A stretch of 64,000 nucleotides of DNA from Amoebophrya sp. A120 (GCA_905178155.1 CAJINV010000005.1:3230833-3294832); one strand, 5' to 3'. Positions 1 through 62,600 are shown, numbered from the stretch's first letter. Numbers and translations: made by a program. The notes: a model not told the origin generated them from the letters alone.

Positions 1-3000
1 TGAACGGCACGTTCATGAACCCAGATTTCCCGGACGACGCCCAGCTTCTAAACGAATTCCCCGCCTATCCGAGAAAAAAACGTTGTTCGTGTAAATTTGT
101 GATGCGCAACATGCAAGATGATTGCGTCTGTCATGCTGGGCATGCATCGTGGGGTCCATTCAAGGGCGTGCTCACGTAGAATCTGCGCATGGCAGGCTTC
201 TGTTGTCATATGTAGTGAGGTCACCGAACGGTTCTAACCAGGGAGTTTTTTTGACAGCTACCCTGAAAAACGACCGGCAGTTTTCAAGCGGCCGGAGGCG
301 TTTTTTGACATAAAAAATTTTTAATTATCAAGCGGACGGGGCTTTGCCGTCAAACAAGCCCGGTCGAAAACTATCGATTCGCACTTGATAAAACGACGCA
401 GGGGAGCCGGCAAAAGGGCCCTTCTGAGGCGCCCGCCGCCTTGGTTTCTGGCGATTTGGGGCGCCCAAAAAGGGGCGCGCAAAAAACGCGCCCAAAATCA
501 GAACAGCGAGACAGCATGGCACGGCCGCGATTTCGGAGCATTTTGGGCGGCCGCGAAAGCGGCCGCCTTTTCGCCGGTTTCAGAGCCTGGGAAGCTTTGC
601 AAAAGGCGCCGGCGTGAAAAATAAAAACGCGACAAAGAAAAAGCGCTCCAGACGCGCAAAGCCAATCCGCATGCTATGGGCCCGATTTTCCTTCGCTTTT
701 TGGGCGCCCCCCGTGGCACCCGGATCGGCCCCATAGCATGGGGGCTGGCCTTCGGGAAGGAACTTCGGGAATTTGCCAAAATTTGCGATGTTTATCAAGC
801 GGCCGCCATACCGTGCGGCCTAACGTTACTCACGGCGGTATGGCGAGCCCAGAAAAAGCAAAGCCGCGGCCAAGGCGATGGCCGGCAAGAAAACGCCCAA
901 CGACCTCACTACCTCCGCCCCGGCGGCTATATTTGGTAACAGAGATATTTGCAATGCTGATCCTTCAAGAATGTTACACCTACAATCTTTTTTTCTTGGA
1001 TACCGCCCTGCGGAGGATCAATTTCGCCACGACAAGGGCACGGTACCACAACATACCCAACCCGTACGCAAACAATGTGACCGGGGCGTGGCTATCCAAG
1101 GTAAATTCTACGATACCAGGTCGTCATCTGGGTCCGAAGACATGCAACGCTTTGTAAAGTTGTAGTTCCTTCATAACGGGCAGCGCTTGCTTGTATACGA
1201 CAAACCATGTACGCAAAACACGATCCCCTTCGAGCAGTAAGCAGTTTTTTGCTCCTGCATTCGAACTGTGCAGGTTTGTTTCATATCTGCATCTCTATGA
1301 AACTGATCCAGACCCGACTCAGGCAACATGTAGTTTGCCATGCATAATTTCCCGGTATGGAGAAGTGTAAGAACCTGACGGCGGTGGAAATCAGCGGCAA
1401 CAAGATCACAGACCTGCCTAATTTGTGGAGGAACGGGGACACGCTGCGAACGCTGGCCGCGTCGAGGAATAGAATAAAGTGCTTCATAGTTTATTTTCGA
1501 TTTTATTTTATTTTGTCAACCTGCGTGATTTTTCGTGAATACTTGATAATTATAGCTTTAGCTCCACCTATTCCTATTATAGCTGTGAGGAGATGAAGAG
1601 AGTAGAAGTCCTCAGATGAACCACTACTCTTTTTTATTCAACAGCCGTTTCCCGCCGAACCTGATCGCGTTCACGATGCTCGAGACCCTGGACCTCGCCC
1701 ACAACCTGATGGCCCAGCCCTTCCCCAAGACCTTCGGGAAGAACATGGTGCGCGCGCGGTCGGTATGCCTTGCAACTATGTCATCTAGGTCTGGAAAGGA
1801 GGAACTTCTGATGCTTGTCTTGCATGAGTGCCAAATCTGTGTTGCATGAGCAGCAAAACAAGTTGTGCTTTTTTTGTCATGCAAAGACGCGCTTTGTGTT
1901 TGTAATGCGCACAACGCATGAGAAGACGCTTGGAAAATCAAAATTAAGATTTGTCATGGTCCACTGCACTGAAAGGCGCACAGAATTATGATCATGCAGC
2001 ATCACAAGTTTCCAGACATCAAGGGAGATTTGCACTTGATAGTTGGTGCGACTGGACAACAACGGGATCACCGGCGACATCGCGGAGGCCCTGGACATGG
2101 CCGACATGAGGAAGATTCTCGTCTTCACCGTAGCACACATATCCCACAGAAAAAGACTGGCAGGGCATCTTTGTAAAAATGCAAAAAATGAATATACAAA
2201 AAAATCTGTCAACATGGGCGAGCCCATAGCATGCTGCTTAGGCTATGAAGTACTTACAGACTTTTTTGGTAGTTCATTTTTGCACTACCTGCCTATCATT
2301 TTCTGTGGGATAACACAACCCGGGGCTGACTGGGGTCTTTCCGAAGGACATCGTGGATAACTTCTGGACGGAAAACGAATTCCTGGCCATCCTGAACACC
2401 TTATGGAAAAATATACACAACTAGGTACTTCTATGTTCTATGCCCCCCGGCCGGCGCCCTAGGTTTTTGATACTGCGCCACTTTAAGGAGGTTTGTGTTT
2501 CTTGTATTGATGAATTTGTGCTGTGCATAGCCTGGTTTTAACTCCACAACCAAATAAGTACACATGCAGTGGATGGTTCTCAACGGACCTTGGGTTGCGA
2601 ACAATGCGACTGTAGTTAATTGAGATTCGTCTCTACTTGGATCGTGGTGTGCCTTCATTTCGTGCCAGAGCACTAGAAATCCTGTGCATAGAAGCACTAG
2701 TTTCCGGTTGCATACCTCACGATGTACGGAACTATCGCCGGTCTGTGTCTCGACGTGCCTTACTGCATGCTATCAACAGCAAAAATGTCTGGGTCTGGAA
2801 GAGTCGGGACCTGTCATGTACATTTTGCATGACCCGTGAGGTCTTTGATGCTGGTGCTAGCATCACAGATTTTTTGAGAGCTTCTTGATGCTAATTACGC
2901 ATGAGAAATGCCCTCTCCGCGTGCCAAGAACTGACTCGTCTTGCTGCTCATGCAACACAGAAACACAGATACTTTTAGAATCCGCAGACAGCATTACTCT

Positions 3001-3488
3001 TCCAGACCCAGACATTTTTGCAATCCATACATGCGCTACATGTATAACACCGACCCGGCGCAGGGCGGGCACGGCGATCAGACGTGGGTCAACGGCATGG
3101 ATCCGGTCATCCAAGAGGTGCTCGAATTAGCGATGACCGGGGGCTATCCAATGCAACAAATATGTCTGGATCTGCAATGCTGAAGTTTGGATGAGTGCTT
3201 TGACTCTTTCAAGTGCACGACCAAAGGAAGGATGATAAGTTTGTTCCACCTTGACTCATGCATCGCAAGCATCACGAAAAACTATCTTTTGGCACGACAG
3301 AGAAGATGAAAGCACGTAGCGCTTTTCAATGATGCAGGTCATGCAACAAAGATTCAAGATTCTTGGAAGAATGGAAGACACGCAACACAAGTGTGACTCT
3401 TCCGGGCCTAGACATATTTGCAAGCCATAGGGGTACCACGACCACCACCACTACCACCTTCGACTTCTCCGCGCTGCCGCTTAGGTAG
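1..3488 (+). CDS. Leucine-rich-repeat protein, 5'-truncated by the window; exons ~<1-65, 1008-1092, 1352-1478, 1645-1763, 2047-2139, 2318-2401, 2720-2770, 3035-3144, 3435-3488
   Basis: Splicing out the TIR elements gives one frame with LRR motifs (NLTAVEISGNKITDLP, TLRTLAASRNRI, MLETLDLAHNLM, SVRLDNNGITGDI, VFTVAHNPGLTGVFP), a Thr-rich tail and a TAG stop at 3486-3488. Intron 1479-1644 is GT-AG. Confidence 0.8.
66..1002. mobile_element. Long introner (937 bp) with a GC-rich internal segment
   Basis: TIR tatccgagaaaaaaaacgttg / caatcttttttttcttggata; perfect TSD ccgcc (61-65, 1003-1007); removal gives in-frame FPA|LRRINF. Confidence 0.8.
1093..1346. mobile_element. Degenerate introner (family A-related)
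   Basis: TAT...ATA ends with ctgggtccgaag / tccagacccga remnants. The TSD is eroded, but removing the element plus 5 nt gives in-frame AWP|GMEKCK. Confidence 0.55.
1764..2041. mobile_element. Degenerate family A introner
   Basis: TSD gtcgg/gttgg; ggtctggaaa / tttccagac inverted repeat; frame restored (RS|VRLDNN). Confidence 0.7.
2140..2312. mobile_element. Introner family F
   Basis: TIR tatcccacagaaaa / ttttctgtgggata; TSD acaca; frame restored (AH|NPG). Confidence 0.85.
2402..2714. mobile_element. Degenerate introner
   Basis: TAT...ATA ends and an inverted repeat (actaggtacttctatg / catagaagcactagt). The TSD is eroded; removing the element plus 5 nt restores the frame. Confidence 0.6.
2771..3029. 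mobile_element. Introner family A
   Basis: TIR gcaaaaatgtctgggtctggaagagt; TSD catgc; frame restored (PYCM|RYMY). Confidence 0.9.
3145..3429. mobile_element. Introner family A (diverged)
   Basis: caaatatgtctgga / tagacatatttg inverted repeat; TSD ggggc/ggggt; frame restored. Confidence 0.75.
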
Positions 3489-4359
3489 CATGATACAACA
3501 GCGCCGCAAGAACTCCTTCGTGCTGCCCGCGATGGTGCGCGCTGCGTCACTACTACTTGGCGTACTTGCTACTTCTCTGGGGATAGAGTCAGCTTCGGTG
3601 CTGAAGATGTCAGGAATGAACTAGAGGCAGCCCTACTAGAGGAGATCAAATGGATGAGATAGGGGTGCCTTTGGTTCTTGCACAACACGAGTTCCGGAGG
3701 GAAGTTGCTACCCAATTATGCAGCTGGTATCGTGCAAGAAAGTGACTAGTTAAGTAGTGTCCCAGAAACTTCTGATTGCGTGACCACGTAAGTAGTGCAA
3801 CGGACCTCCACACACATAATGACGAAAGCATGGAAAAAGCTGCGTTGGCGGGTTCTAACATCACGACGCCCGTGATCATGCGCAGGACAGCGAAAAAGAT
3901 TTTTTACAATCTAAGCTCGGTACTACCGTGTTTGTTCCGAAGTTTGACAATGTGGAAGAAGATGAATGAGAACCACAACGCGTAGATGTGAAGTAGGAGT
4001 ACCATAGGCACTTCTTTCTCTAACGAAAAAATGTTCCAGCAGTATTGTGCCCAAGGAAGAAAAAACAAAGATGAGAATGTAGGCTTGATCGATTGATTTG
4101 ATGAGGAAAAAATCGCGTAGGGTCTATCCAACAAAGGTACAAGTGTCAGAAAACTCATATTTTTGTTTTTGAGTAGCTCATGTTTGCGCGACCGCACTTG
4201 TTTTTGATTTTGACTCGTACAGAAGTAGAGGCTGAAAAGTACCAGAGAACACTTTGAGTAAGTACGTTACAACAGTAGAAATACTCACTACGTCGACCTC
4301 AAGAACGCAGACTGTTGTCATCACAGTAGCCCCACCAAGAAAACGCACGAAAAACAAAG

Positions 4360-4750
4360 ATGGACATCGCAGACGGCGATTTCGGCATGCTGGAGTTCAT
4401 CTGGCGCAGCTGCAAGGTGGTCTTCGCCTTGTCTCCGCTGATCGGAATGGTCGCGCTTTTCGTGCTATGCATTGCAAAAGTACTATCGCACTAGTAGAAG
4501 GCGTGTACATCGCATGACAAACCGTATCCATTTTCAGGTATAGAAAAAATGGAGTTTTTCATGCAGATTCAGCTACTGACCCTGACCGTGACGTAGAACT
4601 GCTCCACATATCTGTCATGCGAGATTGCAATTCGTAAGGGTATGATGTCACTTTTGCAGGGCATACATGATGGCGTACGACGATCCCGCGGCCGAGAAGA
4701 AGAAGCGGGATGCTGATTTTGATTTCGCTTTAGCGGGGAACGAGGAGTAG
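4360..4750 (+). CDS. Small single-pass membrane protein (~61 aa), exons 4360-4465 and 4671-4750
   Basis: The spliced product MDIADGDFGMLEFIWRSCKVVFALSPLIGMVALFVLAYDDPAAEKKKRDADFDFALAGNEE* has one hydrophobic stretch. It is visible only after removing the introner. Confidence 0.6.
4466..4665. mobile_element. Introner family C-like
   Basis: tatgcattgcaaaagta / cacttttgcagggcata; TSD cgtgc/catga (2 mismatches). Confidence 0.7.
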
Positions 4751-5932
4751 GAGGACGAGAGGACGCGCCGTGAACGTGATGATAGAGCAGTAAAACTACT
4801 AAAATGCAGCGCTGTCAACAACTTCAACTACGACGTCAACTACTCAGCACAACTTCTTTGGTCAGATTTTGAATCGTCTGTGCGGAAGGGGTCAGTACTG
4901 ATTCCGTAAAACCATCGACCACGGGTCTTTACGAAAGGAGCTAAGTACAAAGTTGGTTTTGATAAAGCGGAATCGAACAAGAAGGGCCAACTTTACCAGG
5001 GCTGTTCCTGTTGCGTCGTCGGGATTATTTCGGCCTTCCAACCGCAAAGAACTGCTCGACAGCATGCTTTCGAAGAAAGGTGATTTCCAAAGAACTTCAG
5101 ACTCTGCCTCCTGCTCCATATAACATTTCTAAGCACGACGTTTTCTACCCACACGACCCAGTTTTCCCGAATTCGCTTATGCTGTCTGGGTAACGAAACA
5201 TCGCCACGACCCGCCCCGACGTTCTATTTGATATTCAAAAATAGCATCTACTACGTACTGCACCAACGCCGCAGGTGTAGCTTCGCTGGTTGAAGTTGGA
5301 CTGAGTGGTCAGTGTGCACTTGCGGGGTGATTTTTTTGCTGCTCTTGATGACTTTTGTTCCTCGCTCACGCTCGCGACCAAGTTTTATCTGTGCGTTTCA
5401 GTTCGTGAAAGCGTGATGTCTCTAAGGTCGGTAGTACCGGAAATGATTGAGATAGTACTTACACACGACGTTCATCACCGGGCACTTGTATCTGCCTCTG
5501 TTCTTGTGATCTGCATCGATCTGAACGCTCTCCAAGGACAACGAAGTAGCCAGGTGCTGTGCGCGTCATTGTCGACAGTTCAGTTCCATACAAGATGATC
5601 TACTAGCTACTTCGTGAGGTTCAGACAACATTGTCGTGGTCTGGTCGTGTAGTTTCACTAGACGCGCTACTTTGACTCTGATGAACGTGAACCGCGACAG
5701 AGGGGCGCTTTCAGATGTTTGAATCTGGATGTTGTACGTGAAGATCTATTCGCTCTGGAACAACTACTGTAGTGAAGCGGTTAAGTAATAACGCATATCT
5801 TCTGGTTGTGGTTTCACGTTCATCAAGCCTAGCAGGCTTTGACGGAGCAATTGCGATTTAAAGAAGGTTGCTATATAAACGCACTGCGTAAAAAATGTAA
5901 AATGATACAGAAGTAAGAAGTGGTACAAGAAA

Positions 5933-8900
5933 ATGGGAGAGCACAGCCTGATCGGGGACGATGGCTCGGCGGTACAGCCTACATCGTCTTCGTGCTCCAG
6001 CTCCTCGACAGTGCATCAACCGCCCGAGCGCAAAACACAGCAGGTAAAAGAACGTGAGAGTTCTTGCAGCCGACGCGAGGAGACGAACATGACGAGCACA
6101 AAAACTACCCTCGAGCCCGGGGAAAAATCCGAATCACGAGAAACCGAAATAAATCTTTTTTCTGCGATGCAGAAGCAGAAGCAGCGCCGTAAGGCCGACT
6201 TGCACCTGAAATTCGGCGACTTGTGCGAACGCGGGAAAAACTTTGAGAAAGCCTACGAGCAGTACGGAAAAGCGGTTTCGATACTGCGGGACGAGGTGCA
6301 GCTGTTGGAGCAGAGGCAGAGCAAGAAAGATCCGGATGATGATCTTGACAGAGCTGCGCCGCGAAACGAGGAGAATTTGGTTGGGGACTCTTGTTCTACA
6401 ACAACATCGCCGGCACCGACGAAGTTAAAAATAGTGCAACATCGTCGCCGACGACCTGCAGAAGCGGAAGCGCTGGCTGCCCTGGGACGTGTTTGCGTGA
6501 AGTTAAAGAGGTTGGATGAAGCGGAGGCTTGTTTTCAAGAATGTTTGCAACTAGTTTTGAAGAACGTGACATCTGTGGTCGGCGATAGAAGTGGAGGTCC
6601 ACGAGGAGGAGAAGTGGTACGCGACAGAGAGGGAACTACAACCGGAGGAGAGCACACGAAAAACTCGGATCACCACGATGAAACGCCTGTGTCAGGAGTG
6701 GAACAGATTTTACTGCGGCTTCAGAGCGTTTTTAGTGCGCCGGATCGAGTTGGTAGTCCTTTCGGCCTGGAATCATCGGAGATGAGGGCGGTAGAGTATC
6801 GTAGAGGTAGCTCCGCAAGTGGGACGAGCACGACATCGGCAACTTATCCGCGTGATGAAGGCGTCATTGCAAATCCAGATGAAGCTGCTAACGAAGCGCA
6901 TATTACTGACGAGCGGAAAGACATATCAGAATCAGCCGCACAGAGGGAAGACCGCGCTGATTTGACTCAACCACCTAGAAAAAGTGCAAAAACTACAAGC
7001 AGGATAGTGCTGAACAGGTCACCTTCACAAAAAGAGATTTTTGCGCCTTTTTTATGCGAAGTTCTGGTGAATCTGTCGAACGTGTATTTCAGGCCGTTCG
7101 ACGACGAGGAGGAGGATTTGAAGACTCCGCACCGGACTGGAAGAGAGAGCGGCGAGGGCGACGAAAAATCCCCACCAGCTTCGACTTGCTGTGCGGCCAG
7201 TGGTAGTTGTGCACCAGCAGTCGAAAGAACAAAGGCAAAAATGCCAACTTCAACTTGTGTCCTTCGTCCGTCTCCGTGCGCCTCAGGAACGCCCAACAGA
7301 AAGGTTGCCTGGGCCCTCGCTCTGTCCTGCTGTGAAACCGCCCGAGTTATCGAGCCCTTCGCCCCGGAGGCGATCATGCAGTCGTCGAACGTTTTGCGCG
7401 CTTTGGGTCGGTATGAATTGCAAAAATGTCTGGGTCTGGGAGATTGCCAGACTTGTCATGCAGGTTTTCCATGATCCATGGGGTCTGGTATGTAGCACAT
7501 AGCATGACAGATTCTGTGAAAGTTCTATCATGCCTATCCTGCATGAGAAACTGCCTGTCGATTAGGTCAAAAGTGGACAGCTTTATTTGGTAATCATGCA
7601 ACACAGATTTTTACAGGATTCAGATATAGCATGACAAGTTGCATTCCAGACACTTTTGCAATCCATAGTCGGCGGAGGGAAGCGATTCGGCTGGTTTGGG
7701 ACGCGGTGGCGCAGGAGTTGGGATCGGGTCCAGGATATGCATTGCAAATATGTCTGGGTCTGGAAACTTGTAATGCTAAAAGTGAATGATCGACGCACTG
7801 CAATACGCAGCTACGCATGACAAATAATTTGGCTGCCATGTCTTACGTATTCCGCATGGCACACTGCGTTTTTGCGTGACAGGTAAGAGGACTTTTTCGT
7901 GCCTATGCAACACAGATTCTCGAGTCATTCCAGACAAGCATGACAAACTTGCATTCTTCCAGACCCAGACACTTTTGCATTTGATACAGGAGGAGTTGCG
8001 GAAGACGAGGGAAATTGTAATCAGAAGCACGATGGGTATACTGGTCCACGACCGCGGGAAGGGTTGCCAGAAGATTCTCGCTCGTCCTGCTCGACCACTA
8101 CTTTAACAGAGGCCCCGTCACCGCCTGCGGTAGAAAAAACTACTAGTAGTTCAGGGAGTACACATGTGGTAAAAAAGGAAAGGCGTTTGGACGGAAAAAA
8201 TGACAAAATGGGCTTGTTCGAGACGCGCGAGGATCCCGTTGGTGATCCAGAAGATCCTCCTCACCGACGGGATCATGAAGCCGCGGTCGTCTTCGTGTGC
8301 GTTTTGTGGGGCGACAAGGTCTACACGCCGGAAGACGTTAACAAGCTGTATTGTGGAGTGTGCCGAAACTGGCACGATCATGATGAACGTACTGGAAAGT
8401 CGGAAAAAAACGATAGTATCAAGAACGATTCCGGGAGCGGGCAAATAACTACTACAACTCAGAATTCAGCATGTCCGACGTCGACAAATGCAGAAGAAGG
8501 CGGTTCCGGTAAAAAGAACGCGGCCCGCCTTGCTCCACCGTTTTATTGCTTTACTGATCAGATACAGGAACACGATCTATTCTCGTCGTGCAGACATGAA
8601 CCGTTTAATCAGCAGCCCCCGAGCACGACTTCGACTGGTGTCAAAACGGAAAGACCTCCTGCACCAATAGCTGCTGCTACAGCTGCCTCTTCGACCTTCC
8701 ACCCGGACATCAAACTTTGCCCGCTCCCAAAAACCAAGTTCGGCTGGTGGGGCAAGGCGTTTCTGTTCTCCGACTGTGCCCAACGTCTGATGCAGTTTCC
8801 GCGAAAGGTGATTTTTCTCGATTTGGACCAAGTCATCGTCGGAGGGTTGACGGACTGGCTTGATGGCGCATCATATCAAAAGTAAAAATGTCTGGGTCTG

Positions 8901-10286
8901 GAAACTTGCGATGCTGGGTGGCGTCTCATGATGAGGCAACAGATGCTGGCTCAGCATGACAAGTTTCTGAGCTCCTAGGTGTTGCCTATTCTGCATGACA
9001 GACTGCGCTTCTGCATCACAGAAAAACGGAGCTCTTGGGTAACGTGCATGACAGATTTAAGAGTCATGCCAGACAAGCATGACAAACATGAATTTTTCCA
9101 GACGGACCCAGACACTTTTACAGTTGATACATCACGAGGTCCTCCATCATTATCTGGATTTTCCACTACACGTAGTGGAGTACTACTATCTTCTTCACCG
9201 CCGGCGGCGGCCACAAGGAAAGCTGCACCGTCTGCGACTGTAAACGCGTCTGCTGAAGGTCGACTACTTGCGGACGGTTTTGCTCAAGAAGAAAATTATC
9301 CACCAGCGCCTGTAGAAGAAGAGGATCGTCACCGGCGCCCCGCCGGCGTTGTTGAAAAGAACCTTGATGACTTTCTATTACTCTCCACCTGCACTCTGCA
9401 ATGCGAAATCGCCAAAGACGACGGATACAATTCCTCCGTGATGGTGTGGTATCCACCCTTTCCTTCCGCTTATTTTCCACCGCCGCTGCCTGAAGATGAT
9501 CATGATAGGGCAAGCGTCGAAATGCAGCAGCCGAGTCAACATGTTGTCGGCCCTGGGCGAGAAGATGTAGATGAGAAAAACGGCACCCACGACGTGCAGC
9601 AAGAAATAAAGCGGGCCTTCTTCCATCACCTCTCCCTGCAGAATGACACTATTATCGCGCAGACAAAAGCTAGCACAGCGTATTTGTAAAAATGCAGAAA
9701 TAGTTATAGTGAATACTATGCACAAGCACAGAAGTGAAGTAGAATTAGAAAAAATCTGTCATGAGCGATCCCTCATCGTTCTGGTTCAGGTATGCAAGAC
9801 GGATTTTTGCGTGTTTCTAAGTATTTGTTTTGGCATACGAAAAGTGGTGCGCTAGCTTTTTGTTTTTTCTGTGGGATAGCTGTCTTTCAAGCGGTCACGA
9901 AGTACTGCCACCGGTTTGACCACTGGTTGGAAATGAATCTTTTCGACGGGCACGGGGGTCGAGATGAGGATGTGATTACGAGGTTCGCGGATCCTCGTCC
10001 GGATCAAAATACGAGGGCATGTTCCGCATCGCTACTTCCACCAAGGCTACTGCGCTCCTTTCTCCAGGTCAAATTCATCCAAAACGTGTTTGGAAGGGAC
10101 AAGGTCGTGGACTTTTGGCGCATGGAGCAGTTACTTGCTGGCGTCGACAGGAGCGTGTCTGCCGGGAAAGAGACTGCCATTGTCACGTTTCCGAGGAGTC
10201 CGAAGCCAGGGGACGTGGTGGACAAGTGTGTCTGGGTGAGGGAAAATTGGAAGGCTGAGAAGGCGAAGACGACTCGCGTTCTTTGA
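5933..10286 (+). CDS. TPR-repeat plus GT-A-fold glycosyltransferase-like protein; exons 5933-7411, 7673-7735, 7992-8873, 9135-9652, 9884-10286
   Basis: TPR motifs (LHLKFGDLCERGKNFEKAYEQYGKAV, ALAALGRVCVKLKRLDEAEACFQECL). C-terminal GT motifs CVLWGDKVY, FYCFTD, GWWGKAFLF, IFLDLD (DxD), YNSSVM and IVTFPRSPKP. All four joins are in frame. Confidence 0.8.
7412..7667. mobile_element. Introner family A
   Basis: TIR present; perfect TSD gtcgg. Confidence 0.9.
7736..7986. mobile_element. Introner family A
   Basis: TIR present; perfect TSD cagga. Confidence 0.9.
8874..9129. mobile_element. Introner family A
   Basis: TIR present; perfect TSD catca. Confidence 0.9.
9653..9878. mobile_element. Introner family F-like
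   Basis: tatcgcgcagacaaaagctagc / gctagctttttgttttttctgtgggata; TSD actat/gctgt; frame restored (NDTI|FQAV). Confidence 0.7.
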
Positions 10287-14257: not shown

Positions 14258-14371
14258 GTGTGGGGTGGTGTGTGTTTTTCGGGTCAGAGACCTCAGGACT
14301 TCTCGAAAGTTTATTACCGTAGCTCGTGCTACTTCCTGCTAGTTCAGATTTCTCTGGTTAGCAGGTAGCGG

Positions 14372-16747: not shown

Positions 16748-16774
16748 CTGGGTGGCAGTTGGGGTGGTGGTGGG

Positions 16775-41442: not shown

Positions 41443-44400
41443 ATGACGCTGCTAACCCCGGCAGCGTACGAGCGCGCCCGGGAGTGGGGCAACCCCGACG
41501 GCAAAATAACGGAAGATGGACGAACGAGGGCGGGTGACAGCAAGCGAAAGTGGGTGGTGAACGCGAACTTCTTCCAGAAGCCCGACGAGCCAATGCCGCC
41601 GATTGTGGCACCGTCGGGATGGCGTCGTTCCACTGGGAGTTCTGGACAACGAAACGACAGCGCGGCCCTTACCATCACTCAATCCCAGAAGCTGAAGCAA
41701 AATTTACGCATGATGAAGCCATCAGGACCTACAGGAGCTTCTGTGGCACATCAACAACTTGGGGTCAATAGTACCTCCGGAAAAACAAACACGAATGCGA
41801 AGGACATCAAGGGAAAGAAAAAGAATAAAGACCAAAGCATAAATAATTCTGCTAGTAAAGATCTCCATGCGCCGCGAGGTGGTGGAGGGTCTTCTTCGTC
41901 CTCTTCCTGCTGCAGTTCGCAAAGTAAGTGGCTGATTGCGCTGGTCGAAACTTTGCGGACCTGGGTCAGCGCGATGGTGCTCTGCGGGACCTTTTGCGGG
42001 CTTTACCTCGGAGGGTGGCAAGACGCGATGAACACGTCCGGGATCAACATGCTGGGCTGGGCGTTGGTGTCCTGTCTCTGGTGGCTGTCGGCCGCGACCA
42101 ACGAGCGCCTGGAGCAAATGCTCGCCTTCCTTGTCGTCGCCCTGCTCGGGGCCGTGGCGGTGTTGGTACTGGGCCTGCTGTACGCGACTTTCGTTCTCTA
42201 CTGTCTCCCGGACGTGACCTCGGAAAACAGCTTCCGCATTCACATCGTCTCCTTCCTGATTGTTTTGCCCACCTTCCTGCTCGGGGTGGGCCGTTTTTTC
42301 GATCGGTTTTACCAGCCGCATGGGTTCAAGCGGATCTATCAAGTGTAAAAACGTACCCACACCAGAGTCAAGATGGGGATTTTGCAACACAAACCTAGGA
42401 GTTTTGGGAGTCACGCATGACAAGTTTCAGTCCGTAAGGCAGTGCAAGTTAGCAAGGAAAGCCGCATCACAAATCGACCTGCTGATCCTGTTCATAGCAT
42501 CACAAATTCCAAAACACGATTGGAAATGGCCCTCATGGGGATGCGCATCACAAATGTCTTTGTCATTGCAAATCTGCATTACAACTCTGGGGTGGGTACG
42601 TTTTTACTCAGGATAGGATCGTGGCGTTAACCATGTCCATCTTCGTCGTGTTGGTCTGCTCCCTCCTCATCTATCACCTAGCCGACGTATCAAATGTAGA
42701 AATGTCTGGGTCTGGAAGAATGCAACTTGTGATGCTAAATCTGAAGCATGCAAAAATCTGTGTTGCATGATTACCAAAAGTCGTCCAGTTTTGACCAAGT
42801 CGGGAGGGGTTTTCTCATGCAGGATAGGCATGAGAGAGATCGCGCAGAATCTGTCTTGCTAGGTCCTGCATTCCAGACGTCATGGGTCATGGAAAAGGTG
42901 CATGACAAATCGCGCACTCTTCCAGACCCAGACATTTTTGCATTCGATACGACGCCGGCAAGTACGATGCGGCGGTGTCGCAAAACGAGGTTCTGCGGCA
43001 GTTCTGGTTCGATCTGTTCCCCGGGTCCCCGCCGGACAGCTACCCGGGAGGAGGAGGAGGAGGGGGTGGAATAAATGTTGTCGAAGACGATGATCCCTGG
43101 GAGAGATTCGCGAAGTTTCAGGCCGCGCAACTGATCAGACGGTATCACACCGATCCGAACCAGATTCCGCAGGTGCACCGGGAGAACATGTTTCTCCTCG
43201 TGTTCCGCAGGTCGGGAGCGATGGCGATCGGGGTGGTGGTTGCGGTCCTCGTCGCCCTGATCCTCCCGTTCGTGTTTCCGAGGTACCTCAAGACAAACCG
43301 CGCCAAGGTGCAGATCTTCGACAACACCCGCGCCATCGTGTTTGACTCGTTTGAGATTTTGCTGGTACAGCTACGGGCGTATGTGGACGACCAGGAGTAC
43401 AGGAGACGGCTATTGGGGGCGATCGAGATGAACGATGGCACGCCGGATGAGGGGGATGAAAATGAATACGATGGCGATAGAAGCACAGTCGGGCTGGAAG
43501 TTGATATTAATGCCGGAAGTTCATCTTCCACAACGGGAACGACGGCGACGCCGACCATAATTTGTTCCCCGCCAGCCGCCGGCCCGCAAAGTACAAGTAG
43601 ATTTGGTTTTGGTCCCGTGGGCGAAAATTTGGAAGTTGGCCAGCACGACGGATCAGGTGGACGAAGTAGCCCTAGTGGTCGCAACATTTTTGCCAGTACA
43701 ACTAGCCCGCACCCGCGGGGATCACCAAGAGCAGACGCCGGAATAATAAACCGATCTTCGAACCTATTGCTGTATCCCGGCGGAGGTGCTGACCAATCGA
43801 GGACGCGGGTTTACTCCATCACGTCCTCAGGATTGGTATCGTCTGGTGGAGACACTGTGCGTGACGGCGACGACGAGGACTCTCTTCACGGTCGGGAAAT
43901 GTTCAACGAAAGAGTGCAAGAGGATGCTCGGGGCGGGCTACTTCATGCAGGAACAACCGGAGCTTTTGCACTTTCTGCAGGTGGTACTAGTGGTGGCGAG
44001 AGGATGAACAGCGGGGGTGGTGATAGGGGCACCTCCGGATTTTTAGCCAGATTCGGCTCCTCGTCGTCTTCGCGACCGAACTACAACTTACAACCCGAAG
44101 GTGCGAAGAACAGCAGTAAAACCACATCTACTACAGCATTGAAACGGCCGGAAGACAACAATGCGGTCCTGGCTCAACGACCCTTGTTTTCATCATCATC
44201 TAGTTTTGGTCGGGCGGGTTTGGTAGGAGCTGCGGGTGGTCCACCGGTTCATCATCCAAGAAGCATATTTTCCTCAACAAATACCGACTATTCCACAGAG
44301 GAGGAGGAAAAGTTACACCGCACGGTATCGCACCTCGACCAGCGGAAAAAGCTGTGCAGCTTTGTTTCAACCTCGTCCAGAACCCGAGCGGCGGTGGTGC

Positions 44401-47400
44401 CTCAGAAGTCCTTGCACGGTGCGACAGGTCGTGGTGAGACCGTTCTCGAAAGAAATACTTCGCTCGGTGCTACTGCATTACTACACCCACAACATGCAGG
44501 AGATGTAGATGAAGTTGAAGTAATTCATCCTGATAGAAACAATCCCACGATTGCATCGTTTGCTCCGCCCACAGCCTGTGGCGTAGTGGGACGAGGATTG
44601 CAGCTTCAACATCACAGCACGACAGCCCCTTCGAACTCCTGCACGACAAATTATTTGACGGCCAGCAAGCAAACTACTGCGGCCCACCAACATCATCAAC
44701 TTCATCACCATCCCCTCACCCCCCTCCAGAAGTTTCGCCAGGTCGTTATGGGGCTCTCAAACGTTACATTCTCAGCTGTTACATGATTTGTCATGCAAAA
44801 ACACTATCACGACTATTCACACGACCAAGTCTGCCTTGCATGACAACTTCTCGACGCGCTAAATAGCACTATAATCCGTCCCAAATCTGTAATGCAAAAG
44901 GCGCAATCTTCCTCCTGTACTTTATTGCCACTCTTGCATTACAAATTCATGTAACAGTTGAAAATGTAACGTTTGAGAACTCCATAGTCGTTCGTCGTGT
45001 GATGTGGCGCCGGCGGGTTTTGCTGTCCCTCGACGCAGGCACGGCGACTACCCGTATGGATTGTAAAAGTGTCTGGGTCTCCTGGAAGATTGCACCTTGT
45101 CATGCTGTTTTTGGACTCTAAAAAAATTTGTATTGCATGACCAGCAAGAGGGGACAGTTTTTGCTACACGGACAGGGCATTTCTCATGCGGAATGTACAT
45201 CAGGAAGCCCTCGAAAAGTCTGCGATGCTAGGTCAAGCATTACAGGCATCATGGGACATGAGAAATATGCATGACAAATCTTGCATCCTTCCAGACCCAG
45301 ACATTTTTGCATTTGATAACCCGGACGTGCAAGCAACTCCACGCCAAGTCCATGTCGCGTTTTTTCGCGGCGCGGTCCGCCTGGGAAGACTGCGTGCAGT
45401 TGCGACAACTGCTAAGAGGACCGCTCAAGTACTTCTTCCCCATGGTGCGCACGGTGGCGGAGGCGAAGTTACCGCTGTCCACGTTGGATCAGTGGGCGGA
45501 CTTGGTGAACGGCCCCGCAAGGGAGCTGTACGGCCGGACGTCGCGGGCGTCGGACTTGAAGGAGGCGTTGCCGGTGCCCATGCGGGATTTGGTGGAGATT
45601 GTGTCGCGGGTGCAGATATCAAATGCAAAAATGTCGGGGTCTGGAAGATTCTGAAACTTGTCATGCACGTTTTGGATGAGCCATGATGTCTGTGATGCAT
45701 GCCCTAGCATCCCAGGTTTTTTGAGGGATTCTTGATGCCTATTCCGCATGACAGATGCCCTCTCCGCGTAGCAGAAATTGGATTCCTTTTGCTGCTCATG
45801 CAACACAAATTTTTTAGACATCCAAATGCAGCATCACAAGTTGCATTCTTCCAGATCCAGATATTTTTGCATTTGATAGCAGAAGTCCCTCGCGGCCCTG
45901 GTGATGTTCGACATGCAGGAGATGCTGCTCAAGGGAGGCGGGTGGCCATTAAAGGAAGTCGCTGAGATGACATGTAGTTCATCTTCAGGGGAGGCCGCGT
46001 CGGAGGGGGCAGGAGATGTTCTCGAAGAGGGTGAAAATCCAGCGACAACCGCGTATGGTGGAACAAGTGCGCTGTACTCAAACTACTACCCAAGAAAGAG
46101 CGATCACAATATTAACGCATCAACAGCGGAACAAGAACAACACGAACAGCCAGGACAATCAGATCAAAATATCCAACATCTTGAAGTAGAAGTACAAGTA
46201 GATCAACATGACGAAACGAAACCGCTTCTCCGCAACAAGAAAAAGCGCACAAAAGCGGCTCAGAGTCGGGCGATCGAGAAACGGATTTTAGATGCTCTGA
46301 ACTCGGGCCACGAGATCATGGGAGGTCCTGAGGTCGGAGCAGACGAAGAAATTCACGAGACTATCCTATGTAAAAACGTACCCACCCCATAGTCAAGATG
46401 GGGAATCGGCTAGACAAATCCACAAGCTTCGGCTGTTTCGCATGACAAATTTGGACGCGTAGTGTAGTGCTGTTTGAGCTAGTTCAGCAGCATTACAGAT
46501 CTAGTCTCTCACGCTGATTGGAGCATGACAAATTTCAAAACACCATTAGAAAATGCTTCTCATGGGGCTCCGCATGAGAAACATTTTAAGCATGCAGATT
46601 TGCATGACAACTATGGTGTGGGTACGTTTTTACTCAGGATAGAAACCGTTCTTGCGTATTTCTTCGTTGTGTGGCACAACCTATCCTGTGCAAAAGTATC
46701 GTACTCGTAGTAATTGCATTTATGCATTACAAATCCAATTCTCAAGGTAAATCAGCATTACAAATTGACTTTGTAATGCTGGGGGAATTTGTAATGCAAT
46801 TTCTACTACTACGGTACAGTACTTTTGCAGTTCATACAACCTGGACGTGTTGTGTCAAGCCTTGACCGACTTGTCCCAGCTCCTGCACGACTGGCGAGAG
46901 AACATTCTCCCGCTCGTTATCGCCCGCGACGAGCAAAAGCAGAACTTCAAGCAGGTGCACTTCTGCATGAGCTTGCTGGGAAGTTTCGCGGAGAATCATG
47001 AGGAGGAGGAGGAGGAGACAATGACGACTCTTCATTCTCATTTCGGATCCGCGACGGGGGAAAGAAGAGGAGTTCACGGAGACGAAGCGGAAGTAGAGGA
47101 CTTCGACTCCTGCAAAGCACCACCTCCTGCTTCTATGCGGCCACCTCAGGACGAACAAGCGGTTGCATTTAATTCAGACGCGAAACATCAAGTAGCATCT
47201 ACAACTACAAAAACGGTGGCTGGTAATTCTGCTGACGCTACGGCGCATGGCCAGAGCAAAAAAGGTACTAGCAACCAAGACGACACGACAAGCACACTGG
47301 TCCTTTTTGACCGAAACACAAATACCGTGAACAGCCACGGGAGCAGTTGCACCAGCAGCCTCCAGCAGCGATTGGACCGGAACCAAGACAGCGTGAACAG

Positions 47401-54566: not shown

Positions 54567-55829
54567 ATGGCGACAGGGGCACCAGCTGCCACAACCTCAT
54601 CAGAGGAGGCCCCAGCTGCACCTTTTTCATCTCCGCTCTTACCCGGAGCAGAAGCAGACCCTGGTGCAGCTTTAATTCCAGATCTGCAAATTTCGCTGCA
54701 GGATCTTCCCTACGAGACTTTCGCTGAGGATTTGGAAGAGCTTCTTCCCGCGTTTTTCTACGATGACACCCCGGGAATCGTTGTTTTGGATGGTGGAGGT
54801 GGAGGTGGAGAGGGTAGTAATCACGCGAGCTGCGCATCAGGAGCACCACTAGTAGATGAAACAAGAACATCTCCGTCGTCTTCTGGTGGATCCTCAAAGA
54901 ACTGCAAATCCGATCTGCTTCTTGCCAGCATGCTTCTCCTTCTTCGGCAGCACCGTGAGGAAGTGGAACTTAACCGGCGGAAAGCGAATCCGGTCGTTGA
55001 CAGGCCCGAGGAGGTGGGTGTGATAAATACCCCCAGCACGACAGTTCCACCAAGAACGCCTAAACTAAGTGCTCGGCAGAACAAAAATCAGACCACCAAA
55101 GGAGATGCAGCGCTGCCTGCAACAGCATCAGCATCGCTGATAGAGGAACAGGAAATAATAAGAGCCAACATGGAGCACGAGCAGAAGATGTCCTCCGAAG
55201 ACCTGCAGAGCCGAAAAGATGAGGAATTCTGCCGGCGGCTTCGTGACCAGCTTCCGGCCCTGACGGATCTTCACGACAGTGGCAGCAGCTGCCCAGGAGA
55301 TGTGGAGCAACAACCTCCGCCGCCGCGGCTGAAGCAATTGCAACTAGAGTACGTGCGGAAGCTGCTGTATCGGAAGCAACAGCAGACGAAGCTCTCCCTC
55401 GGGATTGAAGCGCAGGAGAACTTGGCGAAGGATTTGCACTTGCGGATACACACGATGAACGCAGAGAGTCGGGTATCCTAAGCAAAAACGTCCCCACCCC
55501 AGAGTCACGTTGGGAATCTAGCAACACAAGTCTCCAAGTTTTGGGAGCTGTGCATGACAACTTTCGCTCTGCAGTGTAGTGCTGGTTGGCAAGGGAAGCC
55601 GCATAAGAAAGCCATTCTCTCATCCTGTTTACAGCATTACAAATGCCAAAACGCGACTGGAAACAAACGCCTCGCATGGAGCTGCGCATTACAAACGTTC
55701 CTGTCATTGCGCATTTGCATGACAACTCTGGGGTGGGGACGTTTTTACTCAGGATATCGGGCGACGACGCAGAAGCTGGTGGAGGTTACCAGAATGACGG
55801 AAAGAATGATGATGGAACAGGAATGCTGA
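54567..55829 (+). CDS. Hypothetical coiled-coil protein; exons 54567-55473 and 55762-55829
   Basis: The 304-codon ORF continues after introner removal as AESR|ATTQKLVEVTRMTERMMMEQEC*. Confidence 0.6.
55474..55756. mobile_element. Introner family B
   Basis: TIR aaaaacgtccccaccccagagt / actctggggtggggacgttttt; TSD tcggg. Confidence 0.9.
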
Positions 55830-56698: not shown

Positions 56699-59600
56699 AT
56701 GGCGACTTCTGCCGCAACTGCCCGCTCCTCCACGTGTCGGGAGATCGTCTCCTGCCTCCTCAAGCACGGTCACGACGCCCCTGTGGACCGCGTCGGCGAT
56801 GCGCAGGTGGTTCTGGAGGAGGCCTTACGGCTTCTGGAAAAGCGGCGGGACGATGACGATGACACAGCGGTGCTGCAGGGGGTGTGGTGCTTTCTGAAAA
56901 ATTGGGATAAAGAGAAGGAGGCGGAGAGCGAACAGTATGACAGCCCGAAGAAGGGAAAATTGCTCATGATCGACGAGACCATCGCTCGAAGGATGATCAA
57001 CTACCTCGTGCGGGAACTCAGCCTGGGCATGCGGGAGGACCAGCGCAGGCTGCCCACGCAGGGAGTGCTGGTGGCCCTGTCGAAGGTAAAAATGTATTCT
57101 GGACCACTCCGCATTCTGGAGTAAGTACATGGAAAATCAATGCGAAGTATTTCATATCGAATGCACGAAGTATAAGTATTAGAATTAGTTGCAATGCAAT
57201 TTGTATTCTCCGAAGGAACTTGACAACTGAGTGCAATGCTCCCTCCCAGGAGCTCCCTGTTTGTTACTTACTTTAACGAGAACGTGGACATCAATCGAAT
57301 CAGCCAAAAATAAATTTAGATCATCAAGTCCAAGTGTAAAAAATCACCAGGCCGGCTACGCTTCGGTGGTGGTAAAGTCCGTGCTGCAAGTGCTCGACAG
57401 CAGCGTTTCTACCGAAATGGATCCCGCCGTGATGTCAACGGAGCTCCTTTGCGTCGTCCGCGAGGTCGCGACCGCTTCAGTCGTGCCCGAGCTCCTCTCG
57501 CGGCTCTTACCGCTTTTAAACGTCACCCGGAAATCCGAAGTGAAGATCGCTCTGTGCACAACGCTTTCCGCACTCTGTGGCGTCATCGTGGCTGCGAGAA
57601 ACCGGACGAGAATTATCGGAGCAGGAGGTGCAGTAGGACAACCAGGCGGAACAAGTAGTTCTAGCGGACAACATCAGTTGCCACTGCCCAAGACAAGCCT
57701 CGACACGATCCCCTCCGGCCGCGCGTCGCGAGCGTCGAGCGCGAGTTCGCAAGCGTCGCTGCAGTTCGGTGAGGCGGTTGCGGGCGCCGCGCAGCCGGTA
57801 GGAGGAGGAGGTGCTGATTTTGGCAGCTCACTAGACGTGGAGGAGCATGGAGGTGGACGACCGCGAGGGTCGTCTGTACTAGCAGCTGCTGGAACAACAT
57901 CAAGCAACAGGGCGTCGGCCGTACTATCGGGAGCAGACATCGCCAATGTCAGACCCGCAGCAGATCCGGACAGCTACGTGTGGTCGAACTTCACGCATTT
58001 CCCGGCGTACGCACAATTGGCGCAAAATGTTGTAGGGCACCAACAGGCACCAGAGGTACTTGCTAGTGGTACGAAAGTGTACGTGTACCACGACGTCGTG
58101 TATTTAGTGCAGATTGAAAACCTCCGGGTCTCTTTCGTGATCTCCGAATGTAGCCATATAAGAATGTGTGAGTTGAATTTGGGAACTGAAGCTACAGTCT
58201 AAAACTAAGTCACTACATGATATCAGGGCCAAACTTCTTGGGACGCGCTGCTTGACGTGCTCGTGAGTAGTTGGACGCGATCGAAAGAGGTGAAGCTGCT
58301 GAGCTACATTCTGGACACCATCGGCCACGTGTGCTTTTTGGCGAGCCGGGACAAATTAAACACCCGCGTCGTCGAAATCCTCGGTTTTTTCCAGGCGTTG
58401 GGCCAGAGACCGGCCGTGGCAGCTGCCGCCGCGAGCAGTGGTAGTACGGTAGCTTCCGGTAGTTCAACTGCTATGATTACACAAACAGCCGCGGGTAATC
58501 AAGCTGCGCAGCAACAGCCCAAGAAAAAATCGAGCACCGTCTCGGCCCCCTACCTTCGCGGCCTGGGGCTCTTTCTCGCGGCGACCCTGTCCCGGTCCGA
58601 AGACGTTCGCGCCGCGGCGACGGGCCCGATTCTGCAGGCGCTGCTCGGGTACGGCAAATTTCTGAAGGACGAGCCCCGGCAGACGCTGGTGCTGCAGGTC
58701 TTTGAAGTGATGGCCGGGCAGCTGCCGGAGGTGTTTCCCCTGCTGTTCCAGAAGTTGGAACAGTCCGTACAGGCACTGGACACCTCGCAGAAATCCATGT
58801 TTGCGTTTTTTTCCCGCACGGACACCACCAGCTCGAGCACGGACGATATCAAATGTAAAAGTGTCTGGGTCTGGAAGATTGCAACTTGTCATGCTGTTTT
58901 TGGACTCTGAAAAAAATTGTATTGCATGACCAGCAAAATGGGTACAGTTTTTGCTACACAGACAGGCCATTTCTCATGCGGAAGGTGCATCAGGAAGCCC
59001 TCTAAAAGTCTGCGATGCTAGTTCAACAATTACAGGCATCATGGGCCTTGAGAAATATGCATGACAAATCTTGCATTCTTCCAGACCCTGACATTTTTAC
59101 AATCCATAGACGACCCGCTGCGCTTACTCCAGACGGTCACCCACTTGTGCCGCACGCTGCCGCTCGCGCCGCAGGCGCTCGAGGACGTCCGCGAGTCGTT
59201 GACGCGCATCGTGAAGAAGACCACGGAACAGCAAGTCCGGGGCACGCAGCCGATTGATCCAGAGCTCGCGGTGACCATCACCGAAGTTATCATCCACGCG
59301 GGGAGGCTACTGCCGAGAAGTTCTCGGGGCGGGGTCAGCGGGACGACCGGCGCCAGCAGGAACATCATGCTTTCGGACGCGACGTTCCAACCGGGCTCGA
59401 AGCAGTACAAGAGCGTGGAGGCCTCGCTGGTGATCTACGTGCAGTGGATCATCGAGCAGATTTCGCGCTCGGAAGTGGCGTCGCGAACGCCGCCGGAGGA
59501 AGGTGGGGCTAGTGGAACTGGTACTGGCATAGTTGTGCCCGGGACTGCGTCAGGAGCAGGCGTAGTTCTTGCAGAACATCAAAACAAGAAGAGCAGCCAG

Positions 59601-62600
59601 ACGCTCGGACCACGACAAGCGTCGTACGACGCAAATACGAGCGTGGGAACAACGCCGGCCTCACCTCGAATGTCACAAATGCCACAACAACAGCAGCAAC
59701 AAGTTGTAACATCATCCCCCCGCTCTGGTTCAACATCATCTGCCGCGCTGTTGAAGCAGTCCTCCTACAGCACCGCCCTGCTGCGTTTTTCCGAGAACGT
59801 CCCGGAACCGTGGCGGGAACAGGTGTTGCTCCCGACGCTCTTGAAATCTGCCGTGAATGTGAAACTTCTCCCCGCGTTGCCTGCGATTGCCACCACGCTC
59901 TCGCGCATGGAAGCAGCGGAGTTCGCTCGGTTTGCGTTCTCAACCGGTGCTGGTGGTGGTGGTGCAACTACAATGGCGTCTGACCAGGCATCCTCTTCAT
60001 CTGGGACGAAGAGAACAAACAGACCAAATGAACAAGCGGGCGGGTCGTCGGGTAGCAGCGCAAATCCGACAGCAAGCGAGAATGCGCCGCAGCAAACCGG
60101 AGCGGTGGATGCTGCGGGCGTGTTCGTCTGGGTTCTGCTGGTTCTCCACGATCCGCTCTCCGTCGACGCCTTGCCGCTGCTGGACTTTCTCCGGTCCTGG
60201 GCGCCGGTGGTGCACGACGAGTTGGGGAATTTGTGGCAGCACACGGACCGGCTGCAGGTGTTGAAGCAGTTCCTGAAGAAGAAGATCGGCGCGAAACGGT
60301 TGACGCTCGCCGAACGGGAATTGGTGTTCGACCAGTGGTATGCATTGCAAAAGTAACGTACTAGTATAAATTGCATTACAAATTTTGGCAAGAAGAAAAG
60401 TGGAGTTTGTAATGCTGTTGTACCTTAGGAGGGAGATTTGACATGCATGTTTGCAATTAGTACGAGTGCGATACTTTTGCACAGCATAAATAGTTTGCGG
60501 CCCTGTCGAACGAGTTGCAGTTTTGCCTACGCGGGATGGTTTTCCATCATCATCATCACCAACATCCCAGCGCAATATTAAATCCCAGCTCCTTTGATCA
60601 TGCAACATCTACTTCCGGGTACTCGTACTCCTCCCAGCAACAGTCAGACAAGATGAACCAGTTCGCAAGCCGGTTTCTGATCACCGCGACGCAGACGAAA
60701 ACGCGGCTCCAGGCGTTCGGCCAGAAGCTGTTCGCGCAGTTGGCGGACGACAGCGCGACCCAGTTTCTCCAGACGGTGTTTCAGCTCTACTGCACCGCGG
60801 TCATGCGGATTGGCATCACAAACTTGCAGTCCTGTGGCATGAACCACGCTGCGACCAACGAGAACTACAACAAGATCCAGAATATCAAATGCAAAAATGT
60901 CTGGGTCTGGAAGAATCCGAACTTGTGATGCTGCATTTGGATTCCAAAAAAATCTGTATTGCATGACCAGCAAAGGGAATGCAATTTTGACCAGCAGAGG
61001 GCGTTTGTCATGCGCAATAGGTATCGCGAAGCCCTCAAAAAGTCTGTGATGCTAGGGCATGCATCACAGACATCATGGCTCATGCAAAAGAACGTGCACG
61101 ACAAGTCTCAGAATCTTCCAGACCCAGACATTTTTGCATTTGATCCAGAAACTGCTGGAGCAACAGGTGTTTGCCTTCCTGCAAGAGGACGAACTCTCGC
61201 TGGTCATGGAAGACCAGGAGAGCGGCCAGCAGCTGGAACACAAACTCCTCCGCCGTTTGTCCGCTCGGGCGGTCGCGGTGTGTGCTGGCGAGCACTTCGA
61301 GGCGGTGCTGGCGACGATCGGCGTATCAAATGTAAAAATGTCTGGGTCTGGAAGAGTCATGCTGTTTTTGCATGACACAGAAGGTCTGGCATGGAAGCTC
61401 TAGCATCACAGGTCTCGAGAAGCGTTCGCAATGCCGGATCCGCATGACAAATCCCTGATTTTGGTGACAGAAAGTGGGCAGCTTTTGCTGCTTATGCATG
61501 AGAGATTTTCATTTTTCTGTGTTCTGAAATGCGCATCACAAGTTTCAAACTTCCAGACCCAGACATTTTTGCAATTGATACGGCGCGGCGTTCATCAAAT
61601 TGGAATCGCAGCACGAGTATCAAATGCAAATATGTCTGGGGCTGGAAACTGGTGATGCTGGCTTGGGAATGGTGGACACACTGCAATACGCAGCCAAGCA
61701 TGACAAGTTTTTGAGCTGCTATGTGTTGCGAGTTCTGCATGGCAAACTGCGCTTTTGCATGACAGGCAAGAGACTCTCATCCTGCTCATGCATCACAGAG
61801 TTAGGCGTCATGAGAGACAAGCATGGCAAACTTCCAATCTTCCAGAACCAGACATATTTGCAATGCATAACGAGCAAGACCTGTTTTACGCCAACGCCGC
61901 GAACACCCCGGGCTTGGGCGTCATGAACTGGATCGACGGGGGCAAACGCGCATATGGGGTTCTCAATTGTTACATTCTCAACTGTTACATGAATTTGTGA
62001 TGCAAGAATAGCAACAGGAAAAGGCCGGATCTTGCAACTCTTGCATTACAAATTCGGCACAGATTCCCTTTCCCATGCTCTTTAGCGCTTCCAAAATTTG
62101 TCATGCGAGGCAGCTTCACTGTGTGGACGTTGGTGCTCATTTTGCATGACAAATCATGTAACAGTATGAGAATGTAACAGTTGAGAACGCCATAGCGCAC
62201 TGCAGCTCCAAGCCACGGTGGACAGCCGCGTGAAGCTCACGCTCGCTTTGGGCTACTGCCTCCTCTACGCGCCGTCAAGGCGACGCTTGCTAGACCACGC
62301 GGGCCCGTTCGCACTCATGCCGCTGGCGCGGGATCTGCAGAAATTCTCGGAGCATTTGGCCACCGTGAACCAGAACACCGCTTTGGAGCAGATGGCTGGT
62401 ACTAAGAGTTTTAGAATTTACTGACATCTGCTCAACACATTGATTGTCGTGAAGATGGATAACTTTGAAGATCAAGAAGATGTACTAGTCGTGATTCGCA
62501 TTCGGAATGAAAAAATAAGTACGGATCTTGTAGTATTCGTGAGTGGAATTTCTGTGAAAAGCGCCGTCACCTACTCCAATCAAAAACCTAAACCCCACTT

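Follow-up and report, generated by a model that had tools for sequence, protein, structure and literature searches.

How can transposons that lie inside protein-coding sequence, in either orientation and mostly without GT-AG borders, be removed from the message so exactly that the reading frame is restored? This question is raised by a 64,000-nt stretch of Amoebophrya sp. A120 (GCA_905178155.1 CAJINV010000005.1:3230833-3294832; the whole stretch is called the window, and positions are counted from its first letter), which carries 30 elements, 7,935 bp in sum, bounded by terminal inverted repeats (TIRs) and flanked by a 5-nt target-site duplication (TSD). The elements themselves are already known as the published introner elements of Amoebophrya sp. 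A120 (PMC7789003), and the analysis concerns how they are removed. We found that all informative junctions are compatible with one cut register, 1 nt before the element and 4 nt after it, and we lean toward a relaxed spliceosome as the putative machine behind it.

The element list was rebuilt from inverted-repeat scans and one RNA joint, none of the scans alone yielding the full set. It took a longer scan to reach position 1002, where element 66 ends, and 2402-2714 was recovered by the RNA joint only. A scan for the motif plus inverted repeat gave 23 hits at a score of at least 20, against 0-1 per block shuffle (20 shuffles). The left end is TAT in 30/30; the right end is ATA in 29 and ATC in one (60883). 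AAA is missing from the left end of 1764 and 61953. The elements are 150-321 nt long, with the exception of the 937-nt element 66..1002, and the duplication is perfect in 22, 4/5 in three, 3/5 in three and 2/5 in two. An earlier note on this DNA had described 30 TAT...ATA elements (one ATC) with a 5-nt duplication, which agrees with the rebuilt set in number, ends and duplication. The elements are listed below, where k counts how many letters of the upstream duplication remain in RNA (allowed values are given for the informative junctions), a joint gives the two positions joined in RNA-like contigs, and core scores compare TIR-trimmed cores in the forward/reverse direction.

66..1002, + strand: 937 nt; TSD CCGCC/CCGCC; element of ~215 nt with a nested insert of ~725 nt; joint 60 to 1003 in 4/4 runs.
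1093..1346, + strand: decayed; TSD GTGGC/ATTTC; k 4 or 5; no terminal stem predicted; joint 1091 to 1351.
1764..2041, + strand: family A-like, reversed relative to 7736 (weak score); TSD GTCGG/GTTGG; k 3, 4 or 5; joint 1761 to 2045.
2140..2312, + strand: TSD ACACA; AT-AC ends at k=4; joint 2134 to 2313.
2402..2714, + strand: decayed; TSD CACCT/CCTCA; k 3 or 4; no terminal stem predicted; joint 2399 to 2718.
2771..3029, + strand: family A; TSD CATGC; joint 2765 to 3030.
3145..3429, + strand: TSD GGGGC/GGGGT; k 0 to 4; joint 3139 to 3430.
4466..4665, + strand: family C-type ends; TSD CGTGC/CATGA; k 2, 3 or 4; 61-codon frame; joint 4462 to 4668, contig depth 90-409.
7412..7667, + strand: family A; TSD GTCGG; joint 7406 to 7668 (1/4 runs).
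7736..7986, + strand: family A2; TSD CAGGA; joint 7730 to 7987 (2/4 runs).
8874..9129, + strand: family A2; TSD CATCA; joint 8868 to 9130 (2/4 runs; the shorter side just 25-26 nt).
9653..9878, + strand: TSD ACTAT/GCTGT; k 4 or 5; joint 9651 to 9883 (2/4 runs); unspliced form in X4.
30959..31112, + strand: family D; TSD TGCGT; from inverted-repeat scan and frame.
32256..32576, + strand: TSD CAAGG; GT-AG at k=4; from ends and frame.
37495..37650, + strand: family C; TSD AGCGG; from core scores and frame.
37984..38148, + strand: family D; TSD GCAGG; GT-AG at k=4; the paralogous gene has an empty site.
42337..42615, + strand: family B; TSD GGATC; no joint among those listed.
42688..42949, + strand: family A, reversed relative to 7412 (core scores 29/232); TSD CGACG.
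44747..44986, + strand: family E; TSD GTCGT.
45055..45318, + strand: family A; TSD ACCCG; from core scores and frame.
45617..45878, + strand: family A, reversed relative to 60883; TSD GCAGA.
46362..46641, + strand: family B; TSD GAGAC/GAAAC; k 3, 4 or 5; removal by contig-length arithmetic (X2 record 8).
46682..46836, + strand: family C, reversed relative to 37495; TSD CAACC; the paralog has an empty site; removal by arithmetic.
55474..55756, + strand: family B; TSD TCGGG; X1 and X2 contigs join 55468 to 55757 with nothing between.
58847..59108, + strand: family A; TSD GACGA; from core scores and frame.
60339..60488, + strand: family C; TSD AGTGG/AATAG; no joint among those listed.
60883..61145, + strand: family A; ATC end; TSD CAGAA.
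61324..61580, + strand: family A; TSD CGGCG; from core scores and frame.
61618..61869, + strand: family A2; TSD ACGAG; from core scores and frame.
61953..62194, + strand: family E, reversed relative to 44747; TSD GCGCA; from core scores and frame.

Removal was followed in four contig runs of one sample (X1-X4), in a comparison that took in 26 of the 30 elements (1-10400 and 42250-62249). All four runs aligned to 1-10400 at 99%, and 12/12 elements there were skipped by exactly the element plus 5 nt; the same contigs also skip the GT-AG intron 1479-1644. In 42250-62249, where cover was patchy, the contigs listed showed removal of 3/14 elements, directly for 55474 and by arithmetic for 46362 and 46682; no joint was listed for the other 11, including 60339. 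For 46362 and 46682, one X2 contig contains 31 unplaced letters, exactly the number expected if both were removed, with G46359 kept. Another piece of an X2 contig begins at 42950 while the contig continues for 152 letters, and a further piece ends at 44741 where the contig continues; both are suggestive only of the removal of 42688..42949 and 44747..44986, respectively. Altogether 15 of the 30 elements were shown to be removed, and 0/15 have GT-AG ends at k=4. X1-X4 were treated as RNA because GT-AG introns are skipped (1479-1644, 53055-53216, 53739-53869), a poly(A) loose end occurs at 5247 and 49587-52254 is uncovered. The run X5 is DNA-like (flat depth 41-44); its contigs pass the boundaries and extend into the elements, and the window may itself derive from X5. 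From the raw-read run X7 came 46 partial reads, all confined to elements. In X7, which lacks this locus, about 30 raw RNA reads agree at 90-95% with a 50-nt part of a family A element (42724-42774) and then pass into different sequence, so that transcription of a relative of this element takes place in the sample concerned.

When the element plus 5 nt was removed, 29/30 elements fell inside long + strand open frames, the restored frames spanning 262, 1124, 1100, 1735, 1825, 331 and 916 codons. All 30 elements, including 4466 with its short restored frame, are thus in coding sequence, as the earlier note had stated, and none is intergenic or in the retroelement at 13.8-25 kb. Restored and neighbouring frames make up roughly half of the element-free window, and an all-coding placement would arise by chance at about 1e-9. 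A retained element would introduce a stop or frameshift in 28/29 tested, 30959 being the sole one that keeps the frame open.

Mismatched duplications limit where the cut can lie, as the earlier note had proposed. Seven junctions are informative, and k=4 is the sole register common to them, with a chance of 0.014 if cuts were random. No junction alone fixes k=4; what is claimed is the compatibility of all seven with a single register. Among these are 1764, 3145, 4466, 9653 and 46362, which the earlier note had named together with 60339, for which no joint was listed. The intron N-TAT...ATA-NNNN, cut 1 nt before TAT and 4 nt after ATA (-1/+4), therefore fits all informative junctions. Six of the seven junctions rule out the mirror register k=1, for which the chance is about 0.03 if the cut followed element polarity; the direction of the transcript, rather than the polarity of the element, is therefore favoured as what places the cut. 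Elements 1093, 2402 and 9653, with duplications of 2/5, 2/5 and 3/5, allow a slide of just 1 nt at the joint, yet their junctions keep to the shared register, indicating that an intact direct repeat is dispensable. Excision guided by the direct repeat, as suggested in the earlier note, is thus not supported.

The register of k=4 is also the only one that yields GT-AG in the window, at 32256 and 37984, so that canonical GT...AG ends are present in 2/30 elements. Sliding the boundaries through the duplication gave GT-AG at the same two elements only, which confirms the earlier observation, while GA-AG can be reached in two elements and AT-AC in three. At k=4, U at +2 and a purine at +3 are present in 30/30 window elements, and in 210 and 211, respectively, of 211 elements in a related assembly of metagenome contigs.

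The exactness of these joints bears on whether they arise at the RNA level. Hairpins flanked by direct repeats are a known substrate of reverse-transcriptase template switching (PMC13149111), and the joints could be such artefacts. We consider this highly improbable, because the joints are exact at 1 nt of sliding room and at weak stems, they follow one common register, and nearly all retained elements (28/29) would break the frame. Excision from DNA at some life stage, like that of ciliate internal eliminated sequences, would account for the transposon-type ends and the exact loss of one duplication. It is hardly credible either, since X5 contigs run into the elements with no excision joint among the 15 of 1992 joints listed, an RNA-like run (X4 record 18) contains 9653 in unspliced form, and the cut has transcript polarity.

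Are the elements inserted in both directions relative to the gene? Reverse core scores exceeded forward scores in the three pairs that the earlier note had pointed to: 36/266 for 45617 versus 60883 (family A), 40/94 for 37495 versus 46682 (family C) and 63/148 for 44747 versus 61953 (family E). The paralogous genes at 34828-40363 and 41422-48673 (42% identical) have 7/9 element sites empty with a single target copy, indicating that the 5-mer is a true insertion duplication. With TIRs, a fixed 5-bp duplication, many copies and non-coding length, the elements are short non-autonomous TIR DNA transposons (miniature inverted-repeat transposable elements, MITEs). They would be mobilised by a cut-and-paste transposase acting in trans, as the TIRs, the fixed duplication and the empty paralog sites suggest. 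No cognate autonomous element or transposase turned up in the window, although no search aimed at transposases was made. Precise removal would explain how exons can be filled with DNA transposons in both orientations at low cost.

Some further features of the elements were observed. A GC-rich insert of ~725 nt (about 212-938) lies inside the ~215-nt introner of element 66, whose short form is present at L030:1379-1590 and L019; loose ends of RNA-run contigs at about 208 and 938 indicate that the insert recurs elsewhere. The enlarged element 66-1002 is still removed exactly, insert included. The motif GCAT(G/C/T)ACA or its reverse is present in 25/30 elements and is common to several families; its density is 9.7 per kb in elements versus 0.14 per kb outside (~68-fold), and its spacing is 31-33 nt in 145/441 neighbour pairs. 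These copies are likely to be phased binding sites of one transposase or host protein. When the two paralogs are aligned, elements 37495 and 45055, which belong to different families, occupy one position with an offset of 1 nt, which possibly reflects a hot spot or near-parallel intron gain.

To what extent the ends are constrained was evaluated in the related assembly. Scanning 15/64 parts for the TIR pattern without terminal TAT gave at least 152 stretches (151 loci, 410 kb), all from one assembly prefix, and 0 viral contigs matched the pattern. These stretches share the element families of the window and contain none of its exons. Of 317 elements chosen without reference to the duplication, 234 have a perfect 5-mer and none has a 6-mer. 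The gene strand, called by a codon model, was confident for 164/317 in one set and 211/269 in another. Relative to the gene, family A elements are oriented 28:27 with/against, and A occupies positions 11-13 in 187-205 of 211 elements. In the 211 strand-called elements, the outer two bases are changed once at the upstream end versus 12 times at the downstream end (p=0.003), or 0 versus 11 after dropping two double-mismatch rows; the single upstream change looks like a mis-called boundary. T and A are both spared upstream and both drift downstream, and a base-specific mutation bias is therefore not the explanation. Several elements with changed outer bases sit in long restored frames. Fully open junctions amounted to 51% of 244 versus 41% of 951 random positions, a weak test, so that coding-only placement is demonstrated for the window rather than for this assembly. 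A G bias at the last intron base, seen in the window (15/30, p=0.02), was rejected because the related assembly has 0.34-0.37 against a background of ~0.33.

These results divide the earlier proposal of an orientation-independent excision. Precise removal in either orientation without GT-AG holds, with 15 elements removed in contigs; the absence of strand-specific signals does not, since the cut is asymmetric and the upstream TA is kept while its downstream mirror drifts. Orientation independence can instead be explained by both element ends carrying the same TAT, by which either orientation presents the U-A signal.

We consider it probable, though by no means settled, that the elements are removed by a putative relaxed U2-type spliceosome reading N|UA. 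The machine would take the opening of the element, read as N|U-A, for +2 and +3 of a standard GU-A donor, leaving the first intron base and the terminal AG unread. The 3' cut, 4 nt past the element, might lie at a constant distance from the stem end, or from a branch A that falls within ATA or close to it. This mechanism is favoured because the common register is the one at which GT arises, the conservation of +2 U and +3 A follows transcript polarity, and the published sites have the form NT-NN or TT-NN. In Table S4 of Farhat et al., 9/9 top non-canonical sites of A120 are NT-NN and 9/9 of A25 are TT-NN (PMC7789003). The A25 repeats start with TTA (PMC7789003), which would again yield U at +2 and A at +3. 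In A120, U2, U4, U5, U6 and nearly all spliceosomal proteins were reported as found and U1 small nuclear RNA (snRNA) as not found (PMC7789003), whereas an Amoebophrya whose introns are canonical does possess U1 (PMC12005148).

Several points weigh against a relaxed spliceosome. The RNA status of X1-X4 is a guess, and all the RNA evidence comes from contigs of one sample. The prior chance of a match to the GT register is about 1 in 6. The strand calls on which the end statistics depend were correct for 28/30 of the codon model's own training genes, with 89% within-locus agreement. In the related assembly GT-AG at k=4 was present in 4/180 versus 5.6 expected, and all 16 first/last base pairs occur at intron ends; neither G at +1 nor a terminal AG is selected, although spliceosomal catalysis normally relies on the first-last base pair (PMC13326754). 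In confident rows with a single change in ATA, the first A was changed in two, T in four and the last A in seven, so that no ATA base is invariant and a strict branch A in ATA is unsupported. Old conserved introns of the same genomes are 98.6% canonical (PMC7789003), which suggests that the ordinary splicing pathway is still strict. Finally, the U-A signal would be hidden within a stable stem.

The indifference to terminal bases, together with strict GT-AG in old introns, is the reason why a dedicated non-spliceosomal system is retained as a lesser, tentative possibility. Here a structure- and end-specific endonuclease would act together with an RNA ligase, as supposed for the nonconventional introns of euglenids, with cuts at 1 nt upstream and 4 nt downstream of the TIR stem. 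This corresponds to the hairpin idea of the earlier note, stripped of the direct repeat. Both terminal intron bases being free would suit such enzymes, as would the persistence of canonical introns alongside the introners. TIR duplexes are strong in 26/30 elements (-20 to -49, duplexfold), far exceeding the -5 to -11 of three canonical introns. In Euglena, fixed spacers surround a paired motif, circles are formed, and a separate machine is favoured by the authors (PMC12501133). Elements 1093, 1764 and 2402 are nevertheless cut exactly (contig depth 16-94) despite duplexes of only -10 to -13 and no predicted terminal pairing. TIR mismatches on the transcript strand show no G-U excess (119 G-U vs 148 A-C), although this test is weak in young elements. 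The upstream UA is kept and its pairing partner is not, which points to sequence reading rather than pairing, and the register coincides with the GT register. The hairpin may help to bring the ends together. A second mRNA splicing machine of this kind, which would recognise the transposon ends N|UAU...AUA-N4, seems to us rather doubtful. If it existed, it would hide from mRNA any insertion of the superfamily, whichever way the insertion points, whatever its target sequence and for lengths reaching at least 937 nt, and coding exons would be a safe landing place for DNA transposons.

Apart from the elements, the window contains a retroelement-like block on the - strand (~13800-25100) with four long frames, repeated terminal segments and no introner. 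One frame has a YIDD motif, which we take to be reverse transcriptase-like, and another a TGLR motif, presumably tyrosine recombinase-like; we assume that the block is DIRS/Ngaro-like. Its frames gave no Pfam match, and two open reading frames gave no useful PDB match. Among 15 protein pieces of the window, Pfam found only a TPR, in one, and an Rfam search of the window found nothing. A duplicated segment flanks the block (~10750-12100 and ~25200-26450) and comprises, by eye, an upstream region and a frame of 219-266 codons. At 24312-24350 the introner subterminal motif (TGTCATGC/TGTAATGC) is present three times in tandem, 12-15 nt apart, outside any element and upstream of the first frame of the retroelement. 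A cluster of palindromic multi-copy intergenic repeats is located at 50500-52200 (e.g., arms 51815-51886/52015-52086), with raised DNA depth in X5 and no cover in RNA-like runs. The palindromic repeats at 50.6-52.1 kb (e.g., 50980-51425, with TAT...ATA ends) were excluded as elements because they lack a 5-nt duplication.

How do these elements compare with known systems? IS3EU/GingerRoot and IS481EU transposons have similar TA..TA or TNT..AYA termini with duplications of 6 bp, or about 4, 15 or 25 bp (PMC10045372), whereas the duplication here is strictly 5 bp. The elements thus share the TA..TA termini of IS3EU/GingerRoot and not its 6-bp duplication (0/317). The introners of Micromonas, Aureococcus, Symbiodinium and others are likewise transposons that become introns and are cut partly inside the duplication, but they carry or co-opt GY/AG sites (PMC9860276, PMC12130899), which the elements here do not need. 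A120 families were labelled 'co-opt both' in that work (PMC12130899; 2 of 118 Amoebophrya rows). The nonconventional introns of euglenids resemble the elements in being MITE-like with paired ends, direct repeats and fixed motif-to-cut spacers (PMC12501133, PMC11282704), and they are excised as circles (PMC12501133). Their code N3-CDG...CH'G-N5-6|R (PMC12501133) differs from N-TAT...ATA-N4, which has spacers of 1 and 4 and whose first exon base is not enriched in purines (A+G 0.58 in the related assembly, about background). In Fritillaria borealis, introns derived from TIR elements with TSDs and without GT-AG are spliced by an altered spliceosome (PMC11282704, PMC13326754), a precedent for the relaxed spliceosome proposed here. 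There, AG-AC/AG-AT ends are preferred, U1 is present and U2AF is duplicated (PMC11282704, PMC13326754), whereas the elements studied here leave both terminal bases free, and U1 snRNA was reported as undetected in A120.

The closest likeness is to the published A120 introners, of which 29,850 were reported. Their repeat consists of TAT, seven variable bases and AAA, with direct repeats of 3-5 nt, or 5 bp in the legend of Fig. S19 (PMC7789003). The TAT + 7 nt + AAA ends, 5-bp repeats, hairpin potential, many families, length near 240 nt, RNA-supported removal and accompanying GT-AG introns all agree (PMC7789003), so that the link to Farhat et al. (2021) made in the earlier note, through inverted repeat, direct repeat and non-GT-AG removal, is borne out. 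In the legends of that study the border is called 'unknown' and the splice sites 'variable' with respect to the hairpin (Fig. 3; 1-5 nt in Fig. S23), and 'orientation' in the supplement concerns genes only (PMC7789003). The -1/+4 register, the polar UA conservation and the orientation test were not found in the passages compared from published text, figures being outside this comparison. In contrast to an account with no clear signature (PMC7789003), the present analysis gives one -1/+4 register, a polar UA signal and a 50:50 orientation. The rule N|TAT...ATA-NNNN| makes the mechanism of removal directly testable, and it turns tens of thousands of ambiguous boundaries into defined splice sites and allows correct gene models. 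Whether the elements turn out to be removed by a spliceosome that disregards both terminal Gs and AG or by a distinct splicing machine, the outcome would be notable.

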